34,649 nucleotides of DNA from an uncultured Gammaproteobacteria bacterium (GTDB taxonomy: Bacteria; Patescibacteriota; Patescibacteriia; 2-12-FULL-60-25), in NCBI GenBank assembly GCA_964415965.1, contig CAYQCK010000003.1, forward strand, positions 131,426-166,074, read 5' to 3'. Shown here piece after piece: positions 9,817 to 20,879 of the stretch. The notes below the pieces were generated by a model, which saw only the letters and a list, made by a program, of their open reading frames with translations, had not been told where the DNA came from and ran no database searches. Positions within the stretch are counted from its first letter, which is position 1. Each line of letters opens with the position of its first letter. A program made the translations under genes and the position numbers.

Positions 9817-12261
9817 TTATCTGTATATCTGCCTCAACTCGATACCGGTGTAGAAATGCTTGAGGATCTGGTCATACGTCTTGCCCTCCGCGGCCATCCC
9901 GAGCGCGCCCGTCGCCGACATGCCCACACCATGGCCCCACAAGGTCTTGCCTTGGTCCCACGGGACCGGTACGGACACGAGCCAAGGATACGGGCCGCCG
10001 CCCCAGACTTCGGTCCAAGAGCGGGTCCTGCCATCGGAACGCGAGTAGTACGGTGTGATGGCCAGCTTGCCTCCGTATGTCACGATTTGGCCGCGGGTGG
10101 CGTCGATGGCCGTGACCACATTCGAATCGCGGATCTCGGCACCGTAGCCGCGGTACACCTGGTCATACTTTGCGTCGACCGTATAGAACTCGGCCGCGTG
10201 CTTGGTCCCGCGCTGGACGTGATACATGGCATAGGTCCGGGCAGCGGTCAGCAGCGCGCGCTGGTATTCCTGCGGGCTCGAATTCGAGGTTTCGGCGATG
10301 CCCTTGAGGTACCACTCGATCGGCAACTCGTTGATGATCCACACGACGTCAGTCGACGGGGCGTAGCGCAGTTCAAGCTTGCCCCGGAACTTGTTGTCGT
10401 TCGCTCCCGGCAGCCACGACACCGGCCGCGAGATATCGGTCAATTCGAGCGGCGACAGGCCATCGGCTTGGACCGCGACGTATTGGGTGGACGATTGGAC
10501 GGCGCAGCGCGGACCGTTTGCCTTATACAGCTTGTTCGCACGGTCATATGAGACGGTCAGGATTTCGCCGGCGTTCAGGCTGCAGACGGTCCCGCCGTTC
10601 TGGTTCAGGTTGAAACCGCCGTTGACGCCACGGACCATCATCTGGTCGTCGTCCGTGGCGAACAGGCCGACGCGGATGATCGGTTCGCTCGGCAGGCTCG
10701 AGGCGTCTCCGTTCAGCGGCGCCGCATTGACCGGCTGGCTGACGGCCGGTGTCTGGGTCGTATTTTGGGTGGACGGCGCCGTCACGGCGGGCTTCTCAGG
10801 TTCGATATAGCCGTCGGCCGTCACCGTGACCGGAATCTCGATGGTGCCGTCGTCCAAAGGCTGGCCGTCGGCGTAAAGCTTGAAGCTGGCGACATAATTT
10901 CCGCGTTTCGGGGGCGCCTTGAGCGTGAAGCCGATGAAGCCGATCTGTCCCGGCGCGGTCATCGACTCGCTGCGCGCCGGCTCATTGCCCGTGAGCCATG
11001 ATTCGTCGCGGACCGTCAGGTATTTGGATTCCATGGCCGCCTGGACGCCCGCGATGCGGACCGACAGGTTCTTCCAGATGGCCGAACCCGAATTCTTGAT
11101 GCCGTAAGTCAGGGCCACGCGGCCGTTCCCGAGCAAAGTCAGGCTCTTATGCGAACTCAGCATCAATTGAGCCTTGTAGGCGCCGTTCGAAGCGGTTTGG
11201 CCCGGCTGGAAATTCAGGTTCCCGCCGACTCCGTCGACCATCATCTGTCTCGAAGGCACGACCCGAATCGGCAAATTGACGCTGCCGCCGCTTATCCAGG
11301 CCTTATCCTCGGCCGCCAATTGGAACGATTCCTGGAAAATCGCGGCTTTCTCGGGAGCGCGCAGTTGGAGTTGGAAGTGGCCGATTTGCCCCGGTTTCAC
11401 CTGGGATTCGGCCAATAACACGGCCTGAGAATCGCTCTTCCAGGAAGCGTCCTTGAACAGGCTCTTGCGGTAATCGCGGCCGGTATACAGCGAAACGTAG
11501 TTTTTGCCGTCCCGCGTCCAGGTTTCGCTGCCCGTATTCTTGAAAGCCAGGTTGACCGTGATGCGCTGGCTCGGATCCATCTGCCACTCGCTGCCGCCTT
11601 TGTCTGCGAGCTCAGCCTTCCATCCGCCCGAATCGGCCGATGGTGACTGCGCGGCCTGGGCTTGGACTGTCGTCGCCGGCTGGGTCGCGGCCGCGGTCAC
11701 GACCTGACTGGCGCCGCTGACGGTGTACTTGAGATTGACGACCGAATTTTTCACCCAAGCGTTAGGTCCGTAAGACAACAGGTAGCGCTCCTGGAAAACC
11801 CCGCTGACTTGCGGAGCTTGGATCCAAAACGTGGCTGACGCGACCTGGCCGGGTTTCACCGAGGCCTGGGCAATCACGGCCGGCAGATCATCCTTGAGCC
11901 ATGAAGCATGGCCAAAAAGCGACGACTTGCCGTAAAGGTATACCGCGGTCTTGTTTTGGCCGGCATACCAGGTCTTGGCGCCGCTGTTCTTGAACTTGAG
12001 GGTAATCAACTTCTTCTCCCCGGGCTTGAGCGTCACGGACGCGTTCGTCACCGTCGCCTGATAATCCAGGACGGCGGCGACAGCCGGCTGCGGGAGAGCT
12101 TGGAGAATGAGGCTGCAGGCAACCAAAAAGGACCCGGTCGGCCAAGCCAAAGCTTTGACCCGACTCCGGATCCTGCTGTATGCCTGAGATTTTCCCGTCC
12201 CTCGGCGCGTAGCGGGGCAGACGGTCTTCAAATCTTTCATAGGTTTTCTAAATACCTGCAT
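9817..12261 (-). CDS. secreted SpoIID/LytB-domain protein with N-terminal Ig-like/CARDB-like repeats (814 aa)
   Basis: Signal/anchor FLVACSLILQALPQPAVAA. The C-terminal ~250 aa carry the SpoIID/LytB signature (YLKGIAE...ALLTAARTYAMYH...YYSRSDGRTRSW). Upstream are repeated beta-rich modules (KPGQ...F.L.AP). Confidence 0.75.
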   Translation of the reverse strand: MQVFRKPMKDLKTVCPATRRGTGKSQAYSRIRSRVKALAWPTGSFLVACSLILQALPQPAVAAVLDYQATVTNASVTLKPGEKKLITLKFKNSGAKTWYAGQNKTAVYLYGKSSLFGHASWLKDDLPAVIAQASVKPGQVASATFWIQAPQVSGVFQERYLLSYGPNAWVKNSVVNLKYTVSGASQVVTAAATQPATTVQAQAAQSPSADSGGWKAELADKGGSEWQMDPSQRITVNLAFKNTGSETWTRDGKNYVSLYTGRDYRKSLFKDASWKSDSQAVLLAESQVKPGQIGHFQLQLRAPEKAAIFQESFQLAAEDKAWISGGSVNLPIRVVPSRQMMVDGVGGNLNFQPGQTASNGAYKAQLMLSSHKSLTLLGNGRVALTYGIKNSGSAIWKNLSVRIAGVQAAMESKYLTVRDESWLTGNEPARSESMTAPGQIGFIGFTLKAPPKRGNYVASFKLYADGQPLDDGTIEIPVTVTADGYIEPEKPAVTAPSTQNTTQTPAVSQPVNAAPLNGDASSLPSEPIIRVGLFATDDDQMMVRGVNGGFNLNQNGGTVCSLNAGEILTVSYDRANKLYKANGPRCAVQSSTQYVAVQADGLSPLELTDISRPVSWLPGANDNKFRGKLELRYAPSTDVVWIINELPIEWYLKGIAETSNSSPQEYQRALLTAARTYAMYHVQRGTKHAAEFYTVDAKYDQVYRGYGAEIRDSNVVTAIDATRGQIVTYGGKLAITPYYSRSDGRTRSWTEVWGGGPYPWLVSVPVPWDQGKTLWGHGVGMSATGALGMAAEGKTYDQILKHFYTGIELRQIYR

Positions 12262-12469
12262 CCTTCTATATATCGCTATTTGTTTTTAACGTTACCTTTT
12301 ACTCGCACATAAAGGATACCATTTTTTGGCTTCATTGTCAATAATTTCATCAATTTTACCCCAACTCAGGCAAAATTCCCATGAACAAAATCGTGGTTCG
12401 TTACGCTAAAAACGCCATAAGCTGAATTCGGGCGCCGCTCCCTTTAAACTAATCCCTTTTCATGCCAAA

Positions 12470-13933
12470 ATGGCCGATATGAACGAAACCGGAATCCTGG
12501 CCTGGAACACGGCCGTCCAAGCGGCCGGCAAGATCATCTCGACCGCCCTTGGCGTGGTCATGATCGCGGTCATGACCCGCCAACTCGGCCAGGACGGCTT
12601 CGGCATCTACACCACCGCCGTCAGCTATTTCCAGATCTTCGCCCTGCTCCTGGACCTCGGGATCAACGTCATGTACGTCCAGATGCTGGGCGAGAACAAG
12701 GGCGACCGCGCCGCCGAAGACCGCATCACGAGCGCCGTCTACACCTTCCGCCTCGTGACTTCCTTCGTCCTGCTCACCCTCGCGCCTGTCATCGCCCTGT
12801 TCCTCGGCTATCCCTGGGAACTCAAGCTGACCCTCTTCGCCATCTGGGGCGCATTCCTCTCGACCTGCCTCAACCAGATCGTCATCGGCACCCACCAGCG
12901 CCACCTCAAGATGCACATCGTGGCCGCCGCCGAGGTGGTGGGCCGCATCGTGATGGTCGGCGGCGTGGTCCTGGCCGCGGCCATGGGTTGGGGCATTGTG
13001 CCCATGGCCATCCTCATCTCGCTCGGGAATTTCGCCAACTTCCTGTTCAACTTCTTGGTGGCGCGCCGTTTCGCGAGTTTCGCCTGGAACTGGGACATGC
13101 CGTTCTGGAAGCGCCTGCTCAAGCGCACTTGGCCCATCGGCATCTCGATCATCTTCAATCTCGTCTATTACCGCGCCGATACCCTCATCCTGTCGTTCGT
13201 CCGGCCCATGAGCGAAGTCGGCCTCTACGGCGCCGCCTACCGCGTCCTCGAGATACTGATCGCCTTCCCCTTCATGTACGCCGGGGTGCTTTTGCCGCTC
13301 ATCGCCCACGCCTGGGCCCAGCGCGACCATGAGCGCTTCGACCGGCTCCTCCGCACGAGTTATCTGGCCATGATGCTGGTCGCCGCCCCGCTCGTGGCCG
13401 GCGCCTTGGTCGTGGGCACGCCGCTCATGCAAGCCGTGGCCGGACAGGATTTCACGGCCTCGGGAGACATCCTGAAGATCCTGACCTTGGCGGTAGGCGT
13501 GATTTTCCTGGGGACCGTCTCATCGCATGCCATCGTGGCTCTCGACGCCCAGCGCCGCACCGTGCCGCTCTACGTGGTCGTGGCGGTCCTGACACTGCTT
13601 GGTTATCTCGTCCTCATCCCCCGTTACGGCATGTACGCCGCGGCCTGGCTCACGGTCTTCTCCGAAGCTTGCGTGGCCATCGGTACGACCGTCATCTCAC
13701 TCAGCCGTTCGCGCACCCGCTTGCCCTGGATGCAGCTCGCCAAATGCCTGGCCGCCGCCGGCATCATGGCTCTCGTCATCTGGCCGTTGCGCGGGCTTTG
13801 GCTGCCGGCGACCATCGTCCTGGGCGGGCTGGTCTATTTCGGCTTCGTCATGATCTTCGGCGCCGTCACCGAGAAATCCATCAAGGAGCTGGTCTTCTTG
13901 CGCCAAGGCGCCCCGCCAGTCGACTCGCTTTGA
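12470..13933 (+). CDS. polysaccharide/O-unit flippase (Wzx-like, MOP superfamily)
   Basis: 487 aa, about 12-14 TM helices, with the N-terminal pattern typical of polysaccharide biosynthesis flippases. Confidence 0.7.
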   Translation: MADMNETGILAWNTAVQAAGKIISTALGVVMIAVMTRQLGQDGFGIYTTAVSYFQIFALLLDLGINVMYVQMLGENKGDRAAEDRITSAVYTFRLVTSFVLLTLAPVIALFLGYPWELKLTLFAIWGAFLSTCLNQIVIGTHQRHLKMHIVAAAEVVGRIVMVGGVVLAAAMGWGIVPMAILISLGNFANFLFNFLVARRFASFAWNWDMPFWKRLLKRTWPIGISIIFNLVYYRADTLILSFVRPMSEVGLYGAAYRVLEILIAFPFMYAGVLLPLIAHAWAQRDHERFDRLLRTSYLAMMLVAAPLVAGALVVGTPLMQAVAGQDFTASGDILKILTLAVGVIFLGTVSSHAIVALDAQRRTVPLYVVVAVLTLLGYLVLIPRYGMYAAAWLTVFSEACVAIGTTVISLSRSRTRLPWMQLAKCLAAAGIMALVIWPLRGLWLPATIVLGGLVYFGFVMIFGAVTEKSIKELVFLRQGAPPVDSL

Positions 13934-13952: not shown

Positions 13953-15200
13953 ATGGACTACCTGCCTTTCTTAGCCGCCTTAGCCTGGGGCATCCTGGCC
14001 TGGTCCAAGCCGCGCTGGGCCGTCTTGGCCTTGCCCGCGCTGCTGCCGGCTTACGTCTGGCGCACGCATCTCGGGCCTTTGCCGACCACGGCACTGGAAC
14101 TCCTGTTCGCGGCGACGGCCCTCGGCGCGACCTTAAAACTCGGATTGAAGCCCTGGCTCGACGGCTGGCGCTCCTCGGCCGCCTGGAGCTGGCCCATGCT
14201 GGCGTGGATCGCCGCAACGCTCCTCGCCGTCTGGATCGCCCCGGACCATCTGGCCGCGATGGGCCTCTGGCGCGCTTTCGTGCTCGAACCTCTCGCCTAC
14301 TTCATCTTGCTCAACGCTTTCCTTAAAAAAGACGAAGACCGCCGAATCGTCGTCCACGCGCTCGCCGCTTCGGCGATTTCAGTCTTCATCTGGTGCCTTA
14401 TCCAATATCTGACCGGCTACGGCATCCCGCACCCATGGGACACCGGCTTCCTGACCCGCCGCGCCACCGGCCCATTCCCCTTCCCCAACGCCGTCTCGCT
14501 CTACTGCGCCCCTCTGGCCGCTTTATTTTTTGGCCTAGCCCTCACCCGAGCTACCAGCCACCAGATACCAGCTACCAGAACCCTACTCTGGCTCGCTTTC
14601 GCCTCAGCGACGCTGGCCACGCTCCTCGCCAAAAGCGTCGGCGGCACGCTCGGCATCCTGGCGGCCGTGTTTCTCTGGCTCGTCTGGAACAAGCGGACCC
14701 GTTGGTTCGCGGTCGGGACGCTCGTCATCGCGGTCACATTCATCTTCGCCGTCCCGCAACTGCGCAACCCGACCGTCAAAACCCTGACCTTCGACGGCTG
14801 GTCGGGTCGGGTCCGCGTCTGGATGTGGCAGGAGACTTGGCAGATGCTCAAAGACCGGCCCATCTTCGGTGCCGGGTTGGGCGCCTATCCGGAAGTCTTC
14901 AAGCCCTACCACAAAAAGACGTTCATCGAGATTTTCCAGTATCCGCACAACATCGTCCTTAACCTCTGGAGCGAAACCGGCCTCCTCGGCCTGTTCGTCT
15001 TCGCATGGATCTTCGCGACCTGGATCCGGCTCGCGTGCCTTCCCCGAGCTACCAGCTACCAGCTACCAGCTATCCTCCTCCCCCTCCTCGCCGTCCTGGT
15101 CCAAGGCCTGGTCGACGTGCCGTATTTCAAGAACGATCTGGCCTTCACTTTTTGGATCCTGGCCGCGCTGGCCAGCCCCTTGCCGCAGACGAAGGCTTAA
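13953..15200 (+). CDS. O-antigen ligase/polymerase family (Wzy_C) membrane protein
   Basis: 415 aa polytopic protein with a large periplasmic loop near the C-terminal third, as in the WaaL/Wzy family. Contains two internal GCTACCA-type heptamer repeat tracts. Confidence 0.65.
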   Translation: MDYLPFLAALAWGILAWSKPRWAVLALPALLPAYVWRTHLGPLPTTALELLFAATALGATLKLGLKPWLDGWRSSAAWSWPMLAWIAATLLAVWIAPDHLAAMGLWRAFVLEPLAYFILLNAFLKKDEDRRIVVHALAASAISVFIWCLIQYLTGYGIPHPWDTGFLTRRATGPFPFPNAVSLYCAPLAALFFGLALTRATSHQIPATRTLLWLAFASATLATLLAKSVGGTLGILAAVFLWLVWNKRTRWFAVGTLVIAVTFIFAVPQLRNPTVKTLTFDGWSGRVRVWMWQETWQMLKDRPIFGAGLGAYPEVFKPYHKKTFIEIFQYPHNIVLNLWSETGLLGLFVFAWIFATWIRLACLPRATSYQLPAILLPLLAVLVQGLVDVPYFKNDLAFTFWILAALASPLPQTKA

Positions 15201-15217
15201 CCTGTATAATCCGAAAT

Positions 15218-15661
15218 ATGCGAAACAAACACTTCCTTCCTGCCTTCTGCCTCGTCCTGGCAGCCTCGCTCATCGGCGCGGGCTGCGAGCTCCCCGCGGC
15301 CGAGGACGGCGGCGCCGTAACCCAAACCGAAACCGCAACCTCGACCGAAACCGTCACGGCCAAACCCACGGTCATCGAGCTCTACACCAGCGAAACCTGT
15401 CCGCACTGCCACAACGTCAAAAACCAAATCGCGGCTAACGGCTGGGACAAGCTGATGCCCATCGGACAGAAGCCGCTGGAGGACCAAGCGAACCTGAAAC
15501 TCGTCACGGAACGGGCGAAAACCTGCCGCCTGGCGCTCGATAAGCTCCAGGTACCCATGCTCTGGAACGGCCAACGCTGCCTGACCGGCGACGGCCCCAT
15601 CCTGGGCTATCTGACCCAGCTCTCCAAACTCTATGAGACTTCGACATCTACTTCCCGTTAG
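15218..15661 (+). CDS. thioredoxin-fold lipoprotein (glutaredoxin/NrdH-like, CPHC active site)
   Basis: Lipobox LIGAGC, then ELYTSETCPHCHNV...VPMLW...G, which is a Trx-fold signature. Start trimmed to the ATG at 15218. Confidence 0.6.
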   Translation: MRNKHFLPAFCLVLAASLIGAGCELPAAEDGGAVTQTETATSTETVTAKPTVIELYTSETCPHCHNVKNQIAANGWDKLMPIGQKPLEDQANLKLVTERAKTCRLALDKLQVPMLWNGQRCLTGDGPILGYLTQLSKLYETSTSTSR

Positions 15662-20300: not shown

Positions 20301-20879
20301 CTACTTCCTCCCCGAGTTGCCGCTGGTGCAGCAAATCGGATCCTTGGGGTTCGCCCGGCAGATCGCGTCGTGCTGGGCCTTGGTCGCCCTGGCGAGGTCC
20401 GCGACGTCCTGGTCGCTCGCTCCGCCCGACGCTCCCGGCGTGACGTAGATGCGCGCGCCGCCCGAGCTGCGCTCCATGGCGACCGCGCCGTACGGCGTCG
20501 AGTCGGGGATGATGGCCGGAGCGCAGGCCGGGGAACCCGGCAAGCACGTCCTGACCATTCCCGGCGACCCGTATCCGTATCCGCCGTATCCGTATCCGCC
20601 GTAACCAGGCATCGCTCCCGGCATGCCCCCGCCGGACGTCTGTCCGCGGCAGTACATGTCGGCCTGCGAGCTGCCCATGGTCGGCGAGTTGCGCTTGATG
20701 CACTCGTCGAACTGGGCGCGGCTGTTGATGACCGTGTCGGTCGAGGTGTTGTACGGCCCGCGGGTCGTCGTCGTCCGGCTGTAGCCGTTCGGCGTGTTGA
20801 CCTCGGTGGTCGCGCTCACCGTCCTGCAGCCCATCGTGGCGAGAACCAATGCAACCAGCACCAATACGAGCTTGCTCAT
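20301..20879 (-). CDS. Cys-rich lipoprotein with Gly/Tyr repeats (192 aa)
   Basis: Lipobox LVLATMGC, a GYGGYGYGGYGYG tract, 10 Cys, GGAG RBS, driven by the TTGACAAGA-N-TATATT promoter. Confidence 0.6.
   Translation of the reverse strand: MSKLVLVLVALVLATMGCRTVSATTEVNTPNGYSRTTTTRGPYNTSTDTVINSRAQFDECIKRNSPTMGSSQADMYCRGQTSGGGMPGAMPGYGGYGYGGYGYGSPGMVRTCLPGSPACAPAIIPDSTPYGAVAMERSSGGARIYVTPGASGGASDQDVADLARATKAQHDAICRANPKDPICCTSGNSGRK

Follow-up and report, generated by a model that had tools for sequence, protein, structure and literature searches.

Heptanucleotide repeat arrays in the loops of a Wzy_C-family envelope-glycan gene of Patescibacteria

We analyzed a stretch of DNA of 34,649 nucleotides (nt), hereafter the window, from contig CAYQCK010000003.1 (assembly GCA_964415965.1) of an uncultured member of the Patescibacteriota. 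One of its genes, for a Wzy_C-family membrane protein, carries two tracts of the heptanucleotide GCTACCA, and orthologs of this gene in related Patescibacteria carry, more densely than their flanks, period-7 arrays with other units. The gene was delimited by open reading frame (ORF) and Pfam analysis, an AlphaFold2 (AF2) model, and Foldseek, and its tracts by direct reading and Tandem Repeats Finder (TRF).

13953-15200, + strand: Wzy_C-family (O-antigen ligase/polymerase-like) membrane protein gene with a predicted WaaL-like fold, 415 amino acids (aa)
14545-14558, + strand: CCCGAGCTACCAGC, first copy of a 14-nt direct repeat, i.e. 5 nonperiodic bases plus the start of the array
14550-14577, + strand: tract 1, degenerate (GCTACCA GCCACCA GATACCA GCTACCA), coding for ATSHQIPAT, in the loop at aa 197-208
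15043-15056, + strand: CCCGAGCTACCAGC, second copy, 498 nt (166 codons) downstream of the first
15048-15075, + strand: tract 2, perfect (GCTACCA)x3 followed by GCTATCC, coding for ATSYQLPAI, in the loop at aa 362-367

Direct reading places the three GCTACCA units of tract 2 at 15048-15054, 15055-15061, and 15062-15068, followed by GCTATCC at 15069-15075, which agrees with the (GCTACCA)x3 plus GCTATCC that an earlier note on this sequence had read at 15048-15068. TRF reports tract 2 at 15047-15072 (period 7, 3.7 copies, 100% match), and tract 1 at 14552-14579 (period 7, 4.0 copies, 76% match; alternatively period 14, 2.0 copies, 92% match). Translation of the ORF gives the peptides TRATSHQIPATR for tract 1 and PRATSYQLPAI for tract 2, so that the peptides named in the note, and the CCCGAGCTACCAGC it had seen before both tracts, are confirmed. 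The sequence it gave for the degenerate tract also stands, but the start it assigned (14549) is one base early. The tracts had been placed near the C-terminal third of the protein; however, tract 1 lies in its middle (aa 200-209) and tract 2 in its last 12% (aa 366-374 of 415).

GCTACCA is counted 7 times against 1.7 expected, a number reached in 0 of 100 shuffles, and a 21-mer search allowing up to 3 mismatches has two matches, namely the two tracts (expected 0.00). Given these two tests, the heptamer pattern is not a product of chance. TRF and a context scan found no further period-7 or period-14 array in the 34.6-kb window. The 5 nonperiodic bases common to both tracts, CCCGA, stand directly before each array, and the longest string shared by the two loops is 14 nt, where strings of at least 12 nt occur in 0.06% of cross-gene pairings.

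The encoded protein matches Pfam Wzy_C (PF04932) with 78.5 bits against a gathering cut-off of 31.7 (E 5.9e-22, aa 215-351), and the match spans profile positions 2-149 of 149. Its AF2 model, built on 27 homologs, reaches a mean predicted local distance difference test (pLDDT) of 86.9 and a predicted template modeling score of 0.89. With Foldseek, the O-antigen ligase WaaL (7TPG) is the only match in the PDB at E<=0.001 (template modeling [TM] score 0.66, E 3e-6; 13% identity), and it came from the fold search only, as a sequence-profile search of solved structures returned no relative. The best scores against the NCBIfam equivalogs RfaL, IctB, and TfpM are 25-51 bits versus cut-offs of 188-600, none of which is reached, and the protein is not assigned to a specific subfamily (RfaL/WaaL ligase, IctB, TfpM/PglL O-oligosaccharyltransferase, or Wzy polymerase). 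The Wzy/WaaL-like label of the earlier note is thus right at the superfamily level, and profile and model together identify the gene as a putative envelope-glycan ligase or polymerase of an Uhrbacteria-like Patescibacteria host. Homologs of the protein are from Patescibacteria, many of them labeled Candidatus Uhrbacteria. The gene order of a divergent SpoIID gene, a flippase gene, and the Wzy_C gene recurs in these relatives, the neighborhood being conserved in those at 58-98% identity. In the window, the neighbors are as follows.

9817-12261, - strand: SpoIID-domain protein gene, 814 aa, with three N_BRCA1_IG-like immunoglobulin domains, divergent from the flippase-Wzy_C pair
12470-13933, + strand: Wzx/MurJ-like flippase gene, upstream in the same conserved gene row (Pfam Polysacc_synt, E 3.8e-26)
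15218-15661, + strand: glutaredoxin-like lipoprotein gene, 147 aa, with a CPHC motif (gene calls in locus L001; weak Glutaredoxin match)

In an alignment of the 27 homologs, both tracts fall in the two stretches that vary most in length and sequence, between well-conserved helices. The AF2 model shows the tract loops (aa 197-208 and 362-367) as short and of low pLDDT, the first lying between helices 178-196 and 209-225. A single transmembrane helix separates each of them from a strongly conserved loop, the conserved loops being aa 155-177 (RRATGPFPFPNA), aa 268-333 (YPHN and others), and aa 388-393 (DVPYFKND). The analogy with WaaL would place these conserved loops on the periplasmic side. Since the tract loops are one helix from these presumed periplasmic loops and are rich in Arg and Lys, both are probably cytoplasmic, which would leave no antigenic variation of an exposed peptide. 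On these grounds we rejected the idea that the loops are antigens exposed at the surface and under diversifying selection; blocks of hypervariable loop sequence that separate near-identical strains do not necessarily imply selection on an exposed epitope.

Palindromic in-frame insertions that resemble miniature inverted-repeat transposable elements are found in the same loops of some orthologs (loci L060, L073, L081, L035, L014, and L077). Such an insertion is also seen in L064 at about 2630-2680 (gene nt ~210-260). As an example, AACCCCTCCTCACCTCCCCTTAACTTAAGGGGAGGCAGGGTAGGGTT encodes NPSSPPLNLRGGRVGL, others give the peptides RHSERSEES and PRFARNDN, and a related palindrome, GGGAGGGCAGGGTGGGTT, lies directly before the L064 start codon.

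We simulated the addition or removal of a single unit at each tract, as well as a deletion between the two 14-mers, with the following products.

Tract 2, +1 unit: 571 aa, wild type through aa 373, reading on in frame into the glutaredoxin-like lipoprotein gene downstream
Tract 2, -1 unit: 492 aa, wild type through aa 371
Tract 1, +1 unit: 338 aa, wild type through aa 202
Tract 1, -1 unit: 275 aa, wild type through aa 201
Deletion between the two 14-mers: 249 aa

Slips at tract 2 lose the invariant DVPYFKND region and slips at tract 1 lose the Wzy_C domain. Because the +1 frame is open from 15048 to 15661, a one-unit gain at tract 2 yields the 571-aa fusion and not a short truncation. The frameshift that the earlier note expected from a 7-nt unit is borne out by these simulations, and has a natural counterpart in the ortholog L094, described below. 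Its other proposal, an in-frame deletion between the 14-mers, fares less well: the simulated product has 249 aa, and no such homolog is present among the matches listed.

The window's own species is represented by a 90%-identity cluster of 8 protein sequences, carried by 15 contigs that stem from at least 8 sequencing runs or samples and are all consensus assemblies. Six variants (allele A) have 415 aa and both tract lengths unchanged, and in one of them the fourth unit of tract 2 has GCTACC where the window has GCTATC. The remaining two (allele B) have 426 aa; protein variants differ by up to 2-3% for allele A and 10% for allele B. As such, the repeat-number variation that the note had suggested looking for among strain variants is absent from these contigs and the frame is intact throughout: in this species the loops are hypervariable, and the window tracts (3.7 perfect units in one, 4 degenerate units in the other) are fixed, with the frame kept. 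A scan of Joint Genome Institute (JGI) metagenomes for strain-level variants gave two loci at 71% identity, and is thus uninformative on the window species.

These data bear on the on/off switch that the earlier note proposed, i.e. an efficient, programmed phase-variation switch in which tract 2, tract 1, or both slip often and toggle a surface glycan. The ORF repeat does have a unit that is not divisible by three, tract 2 is perfect, a simulated one-unit change inactivates the protein, and a one-unit OFF allele derived from a 4.3-unit array exists in an ortholog. There is also a precedent in Neisseria pglE, where a coding heptanucleotide repeat in a glycosyltransferase of pilin and protein glycosylation is an experimentally established phase-variation switch, with expression that varies among isolates (PMC7157529). 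As in pglE, the 7-nt unit here sits inside the ORF of a putative surface-glycan gene, and the frame shifts when units are gained or lost. Unlike pglE, the window has only ~4 units, invariant in the species, in a polytopic protein of the Wzy_C/WaaL fold, some Wzy_C orthologs have several arrays per gene, and the unit sequence is lineage-specific. Against an efficient switch, the 8 variants (15 contigs; at least 8 samples) show no tract-length change or OFF allele, and the tracts have 3.7 units (tract 2) and a periodicity of 76% (tract 1), versus 13-24 units in the (ATCTTTC)n promoter repeat of Haemophilus influenzae hmw1A, an intergenic heptanucleotide simple sequence repeat (SSR) that grades transcription of a surface factor (PMC8262952). 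Some orthologous loci resemble hmw1A in having heptamer arrays directly upstream of start codons, whereas the window tracts differ from it in being coding and of ~4 units. Tract length and purity are therefore modest next to studied switches, yet an array of 4.3 units did change by one unit in the L064/L094 pair. The slippage and frameshift mechanism of the note remains plausible; a switch that operates efficiently in the window species is, in our judgment, improbable.

Over 5.8 kb, allele B and the window share 98-99% identity outside two blocks, each centered on a tract.

14522-14596, + strand: hyperdivergent block 1 between alleles A and B, around tract 1 (36 differences in 14500-14599)
15025-15088, + strand: hyperdivergent block 2, around tract 2 (62 differences in 15000-15099; allele B is 33 nt longer)

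The background is 0-7 differences per 100 nt, and the two tract loops are the only hyperdivergent blocks in the 5.8 kb. Both loops of allele B carry another heptamer with the core ATCGA; specifically, loop 1 reads CTATCGA CAATCGA CCATCGA (TRF period 7, 3.6 copies). The codons of the flanking helices differ mainly at synonymous sites, with saturation in the flanks, and the pattern looks like imported diverged DNA or very old alleles. We rejected mutagenesis targeted to the loops, by a diversity-generating retroelement or otherwise, as the alleles differ by indels, all substitution types, and synonymous flank changes. We also do not claim homology of the two units (CTACCAG in allele A and CTATCGA in allele B): three transitions separate their consensuses, but when they are compared unit by unit they show weak similarity.

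The tracts of the window differ in age. GCTACCA-type arrays are present in loop 1 of loci L091 (75% identity) and L092 (58%), so tract 1 is old and decaying. Loop 2 of these two loci is different and longer, like that of allele B and the P0004 lineage, and tract 2 is young, since it is absent from the closest other lineages. Most likely, judging from the sequence, tract 2 was copied recently within the gene from the older tract 1, via the shared CCCGAGCTACCAGC.

Taken alone, the window tracts make a weak case, and the weight lies in the family-wide pattern together with a natural one-unit knock-out. For the former, the orthologous locus was fetched from 80 species-representative genomes, so that clade counts are over 81 loci, and tandem repeats were scanned at periods 4-15. 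The Wzy_C gene holds 26 period-7 arrays in 102 kb total (0.256 per kb) and the flanks hold 10 in 343 kb total (0.029 per kb), i.e. a density ~9-fold higher in the gene, with 26 of 36 arrays genic. Every other period from 4 to 15 has 0-3 arrays. A second, independent TRF run assigns 39 of 60 genic arrays to periods 7, 14, or 21, while codon-shuffled Wzy_C genes have no arrays, and control homologs of the flippase have no period-7 array in 61 kb. Five contexts of 21-35 kb, three of which were picked for array richness, contain ~16 well-preserved arrays in their Wzy_C genes (6.9 kb) versus ~4 elsewhere (~113 kb), and part of the enrichment estimate rests on these. Period 7 is thus the predominant tandem-repeat period of the lineage.

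The arrays occupy reference aa 1-11, 62-81, 122-132, 199-216, 248-254, and 359-376, which correspond to the N-terminus and nonconserved loops, and 61 of the 81 loci have none. Unit sequences vary by lineage and include GCTACCA, GAAGTAC, GAGTTAC, CTACTTA, AGTATCC, ACTCGAT, AAATTCC, and others. The reading frame continues through both loops in each of the 81 species-level orthologs. The comparison of orthologs that the earlier note had recommended thus did turn up arrays and, as described next, copy-number polymorphism, but each species representative keeps its frame.

Unit number changes between close relatives in two groups. In the P0004 lineage (71% identity to the window protein), loop 1 carries (CGACTCA)3.7 and loop 2 the same CGACTCA unit in 5.4 copies; P0129, which is 98% identical to P0004, has 11.4 copies, i.e. 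6 more units and 14 more aa, in frame. In P0128/L089, two unit variants stand in the other order and total length is unchanged. The second group is the species of locus L064, Uhrbacteria RIFCSPHIGHO2_02_FULL_46_47. L094, a contig of another assembly, differs from L064 over 1130 nt of the gene in one respect, the loss of exactly one CTACATA unit (4.3 to 3.3 copies), and this loss shifts the frame so that the product ends at 298 of 495 aa. The truncated product is found on 2 contigs and the intact one on at least 24. As expected of a contingency locus, repeat number is therefore polymorphic in orthologs of related species (L094 versus L064; 5.4 versus 11.4 copies in the P0004 lineage), and no such polymorphism with out-of-frame states is present among the 8 variants on 15 contigs of the window species.

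Two further candidates for broken genes were set aside. P0148 (392 aa) is not a second frameshift allele of L064, as its DNA is identical and the annotated start alone differs. The split ortholog P0137 (272 aa)/P0138 (117 aa), in the cluster of P0054 on one 61-kb JGI contig, was not counted because the break is not at a heptamer array; the frameshift follows aa 244 and may reflect a pseudogene or an assembly error.

How arrays spread within a gene can be read in part from their units. Unit pairs at a distance of at most 1 make up 5 of 27 pairs within a locus versus 14 of 603 between loci, and loops 1 and 2 of one gene share a string of at least 10 nt in 8 of 81 genes versus 0.66% of cross-gene pairs. 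Two loops of one Wzy_C gene often carry the same unit; this is seen in four lineages with four different units (the window, allele B, P0004, and P0012). L060 holds two identical 30-nt arrays in the same phase (identical arrays are noted as L060/L098), and in L052 (also L052/L099) ACTCGAT x4.3-4.4 is present both in the Wzy_C gene and in a neighboring membrane-protein gene. Perfect genic arrays cluster at 29-30 nt, equal to 4.3 units.

One explanation for this sharing is that ready-made blocks of ~30 nt (4.3 units) are inserted by a mobile or enzyme-made element, or by microhomology-mediated template switching, and not built by stepwise slippage. The identical same-phase arrays at two sites, the repeated ACTCGAT array, the 29-30-nt mode, and the CCCGA flank before both window tracts would fit such copying. 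However, we saw no enzyme associated with the arrays, no terminal structure, and no target-site duplication, many arrays within one gene have unrelated units, and the length mode is equally predicted by frame constraint, as 21 nt, the minimum gain that preserves the frame, added to a seed of 8-9 nt gives 29-30 nt. Intergenic arrays are also wider in length (25-47 nt). We regard block insertion as very improbable. The sharing of a unit by loops 1 and 2 in four lineages might instead point to a role of the encoded peptide, or of the repeats as factor-binding sites, like the heptad operators of ribbon-helix-helix proteins. Against this, units are unrelated across lineages, peptides are wholly different between strains that are 98-99% identical elsewhere, arrays decay and are absent from 61 of 81 loci, and the loops are unconserved and of low model confidence, and we give this explanation almost no credence.

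Outside ORFs, there is a tendency for arrays to stop 4-8 nt short of a start codon. Of 9 intergenic arrays, 7 are upstream of a Wzy_C or flippase gene, and 5 of these 7 are within 8 nt of a start codon. The start-codon arrays are listed below by locus.

L027 2406-2438 and L082 2436-2460: before the Wzy_C start codon
L038 949-975, L057 936-982, and L063 995-1026: before the flippase start codon
L055 4825-4855: before the start codon of the lipoprotein gene

Nothing resembling a Shine-Dalgarno sequence can be seen between these arrays and the ATG, and in L080 the flippase-Wzy spacer consists mostly of two heptamer arrays (array 2408-2434). A further possibility is that Uhrbacteria and related Patescibacteria keep the flippase-Wzy_C pair under microsatellite control, with coding arrays as ON/OFF elements, start-codon arrays that tune expression, and copy-paste seeding of ~30-nt blocks. 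We consider this unlikely, and if it were true it would be the first contingency-locus system described in bacteria of the candidate phyla radiation (CPR), of which the window tracts would be one short instance.

A more conservative explanation is that the arrays are neutral passengers, i.e. that a genome-wide bias to 7-nt tandem duplication meets permissive loops, the frameshifts being mere accidents with no selection for mutability. Period 7 dominates outside the Wzy_C gene too, and heptameric SSRs are reported to be over-represented in many bacteria, with polymerase slippage as the proposed cause (PMC4692102). The confinement to nonconserved loops, which also host unrelated in-frame insertions, the intact frame of all 81 species representatives, the decay of many arrays, and minimal copy numbers of ~4 would all be consistent with neutrality. 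Several observations are harder to reconcile with it. The density of arrays over the whole gene equals the intergenic density and is estimated to be several-fold higher if the loops alone are counted; the adjacent flippase, also a multi-span protein, has no arrays; intergenic arrays gather upstream of the same two genes and next to start codons; and single-unit steps to 4.3 copies must pass through null states. Overall, we view neutrality as a serious alternative that is nonetheless rather doubtful.

The reading we prefer, although we put it at about an even chance, is that these arrays are slippage-prone microsatellites which mainly generate hypervariable loops and occasionally knock out the gene, i.e. 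a low-rate hot spot of the contingency type that acts in the window species as a rare switch at most. Arrays would arise and turn over by slipped-strand mispairing combined with copying between nearby sites. Consensus genomes would then keep only frame-preserving states, reached by net changes of 3 units (21 nt), and since only in-frame states persist, the main visible effect would be variable loop sequence and length. A slip of one unit would give a null allele of the Wzy_C gene. The concentration in one gene, the repeated independent origin, the arrays 4-8 nt before starts, and the natural null allele are all features expected of contingency loci, and any adaptive value they confer would be a further step.

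Several points weigh against this reading. The window tracts show no unit-number change or frameshifted allele on the 15 contigs, no truncated or fused product with >74% identity is among the best 120 matches in a search of 5.8 billion proteins, and degenerate arrays in two other lineages show no variation; minority subpopulations are invisible in consensus assemblies. The evidence for slippage is indirect, and the single natural frameshift allele, on two contigs, could be deleterious or, less likely, an assembly error. The difference between alleles A and B also resembles import of diverged DNA, given the synonymous saturation of the flanks. Lastly, the enrichment could reflect an unusual tolerance of the loops, which take palindromic insertions as well, and it draws in part on contexts chosen for their arrays.

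Heptameric repeats are known from other bacteria. The short tandemly repeated repetitive (STRR) heptamers of Calothrix and Nostoc and the GGGAATC repeat of Xanthomonas are over-represented repeats, the dominant long SSR class of certain lineages, whose length and sequence change between close relatives and for which polymerase slippage is proposed; they are mostly intergenic and G-rich, with one or few units per genome in many copies (PMC4692102). Like these, 7-nt units are the dominant tandem-repeat class of the lineage studied here. Unlike them, the Patescibacteria arrays, as sampled from 81 loci, are mostly in one gene, short, in frame, and built on many units. The protein itself resembles WaaL 7TPG and the Wzy_C superfamily in fold and Pfam assignment, and it differs from WaaL in its low identity, the lack of an NCBIfam equivalog, and its Patescibacteria host. 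The system is thus distinct from the known heptamer systems in having short, in-frame, multi-unit arrays in the loops of one conserved polytopic gene across a CPR clade. Our literature search, which was not exhaustive, found no report on heptanucleotide repeats or SSR phase variation in Patescibacteria.

CPR bacteria, or Patescibacteria, are ultra-small and mostly uncultured, and their cell surface is thought to mediate host attachment and phage exposure. To our knowledge, almost nothing has been established on how they vary this surface. The repeated, independent colonization of a conserved WaaL-fold gene by frame-breaking 7-nt microsatellites leads to a hypothesis that can be tested with reads, i.e. 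that CPR envelope glycan is stochastically lost and recovered. Even under neutrality, the arrays show how strongly a bias toward 7-nt slippage shapes the protein loops of compact genomes.

Other repeats and genes were seen along the way. Inside the downstream lipoprotein gene of the window, a degenerate CCGAAA-like hexanucleotide repeat (15315-15353, 6.5 copies, 72% match) codes for a T/E/A-rich linker (TQTETATSTETVT) after the lipobox. Further downstream, at 20569-20603, lies a perfect 15-nt repeat, CCGTATCCGTATCCG, in 2.3 copies, which would read PYPYPPYPYPP on the + strand or GYGYGG on the - strand. Among the relatives, the P0004 lineage has three T4SS_pilin genes (PF18895) in tandem ~9 kb downstream of its ortholog (L093 20172-21344), and in the L064 species a free-standing LAGLIDADG endonuclease ORF and an NYN-domain gene stand directly downstream of Wzy_C (L096/L097/L100, ~12468-12917).

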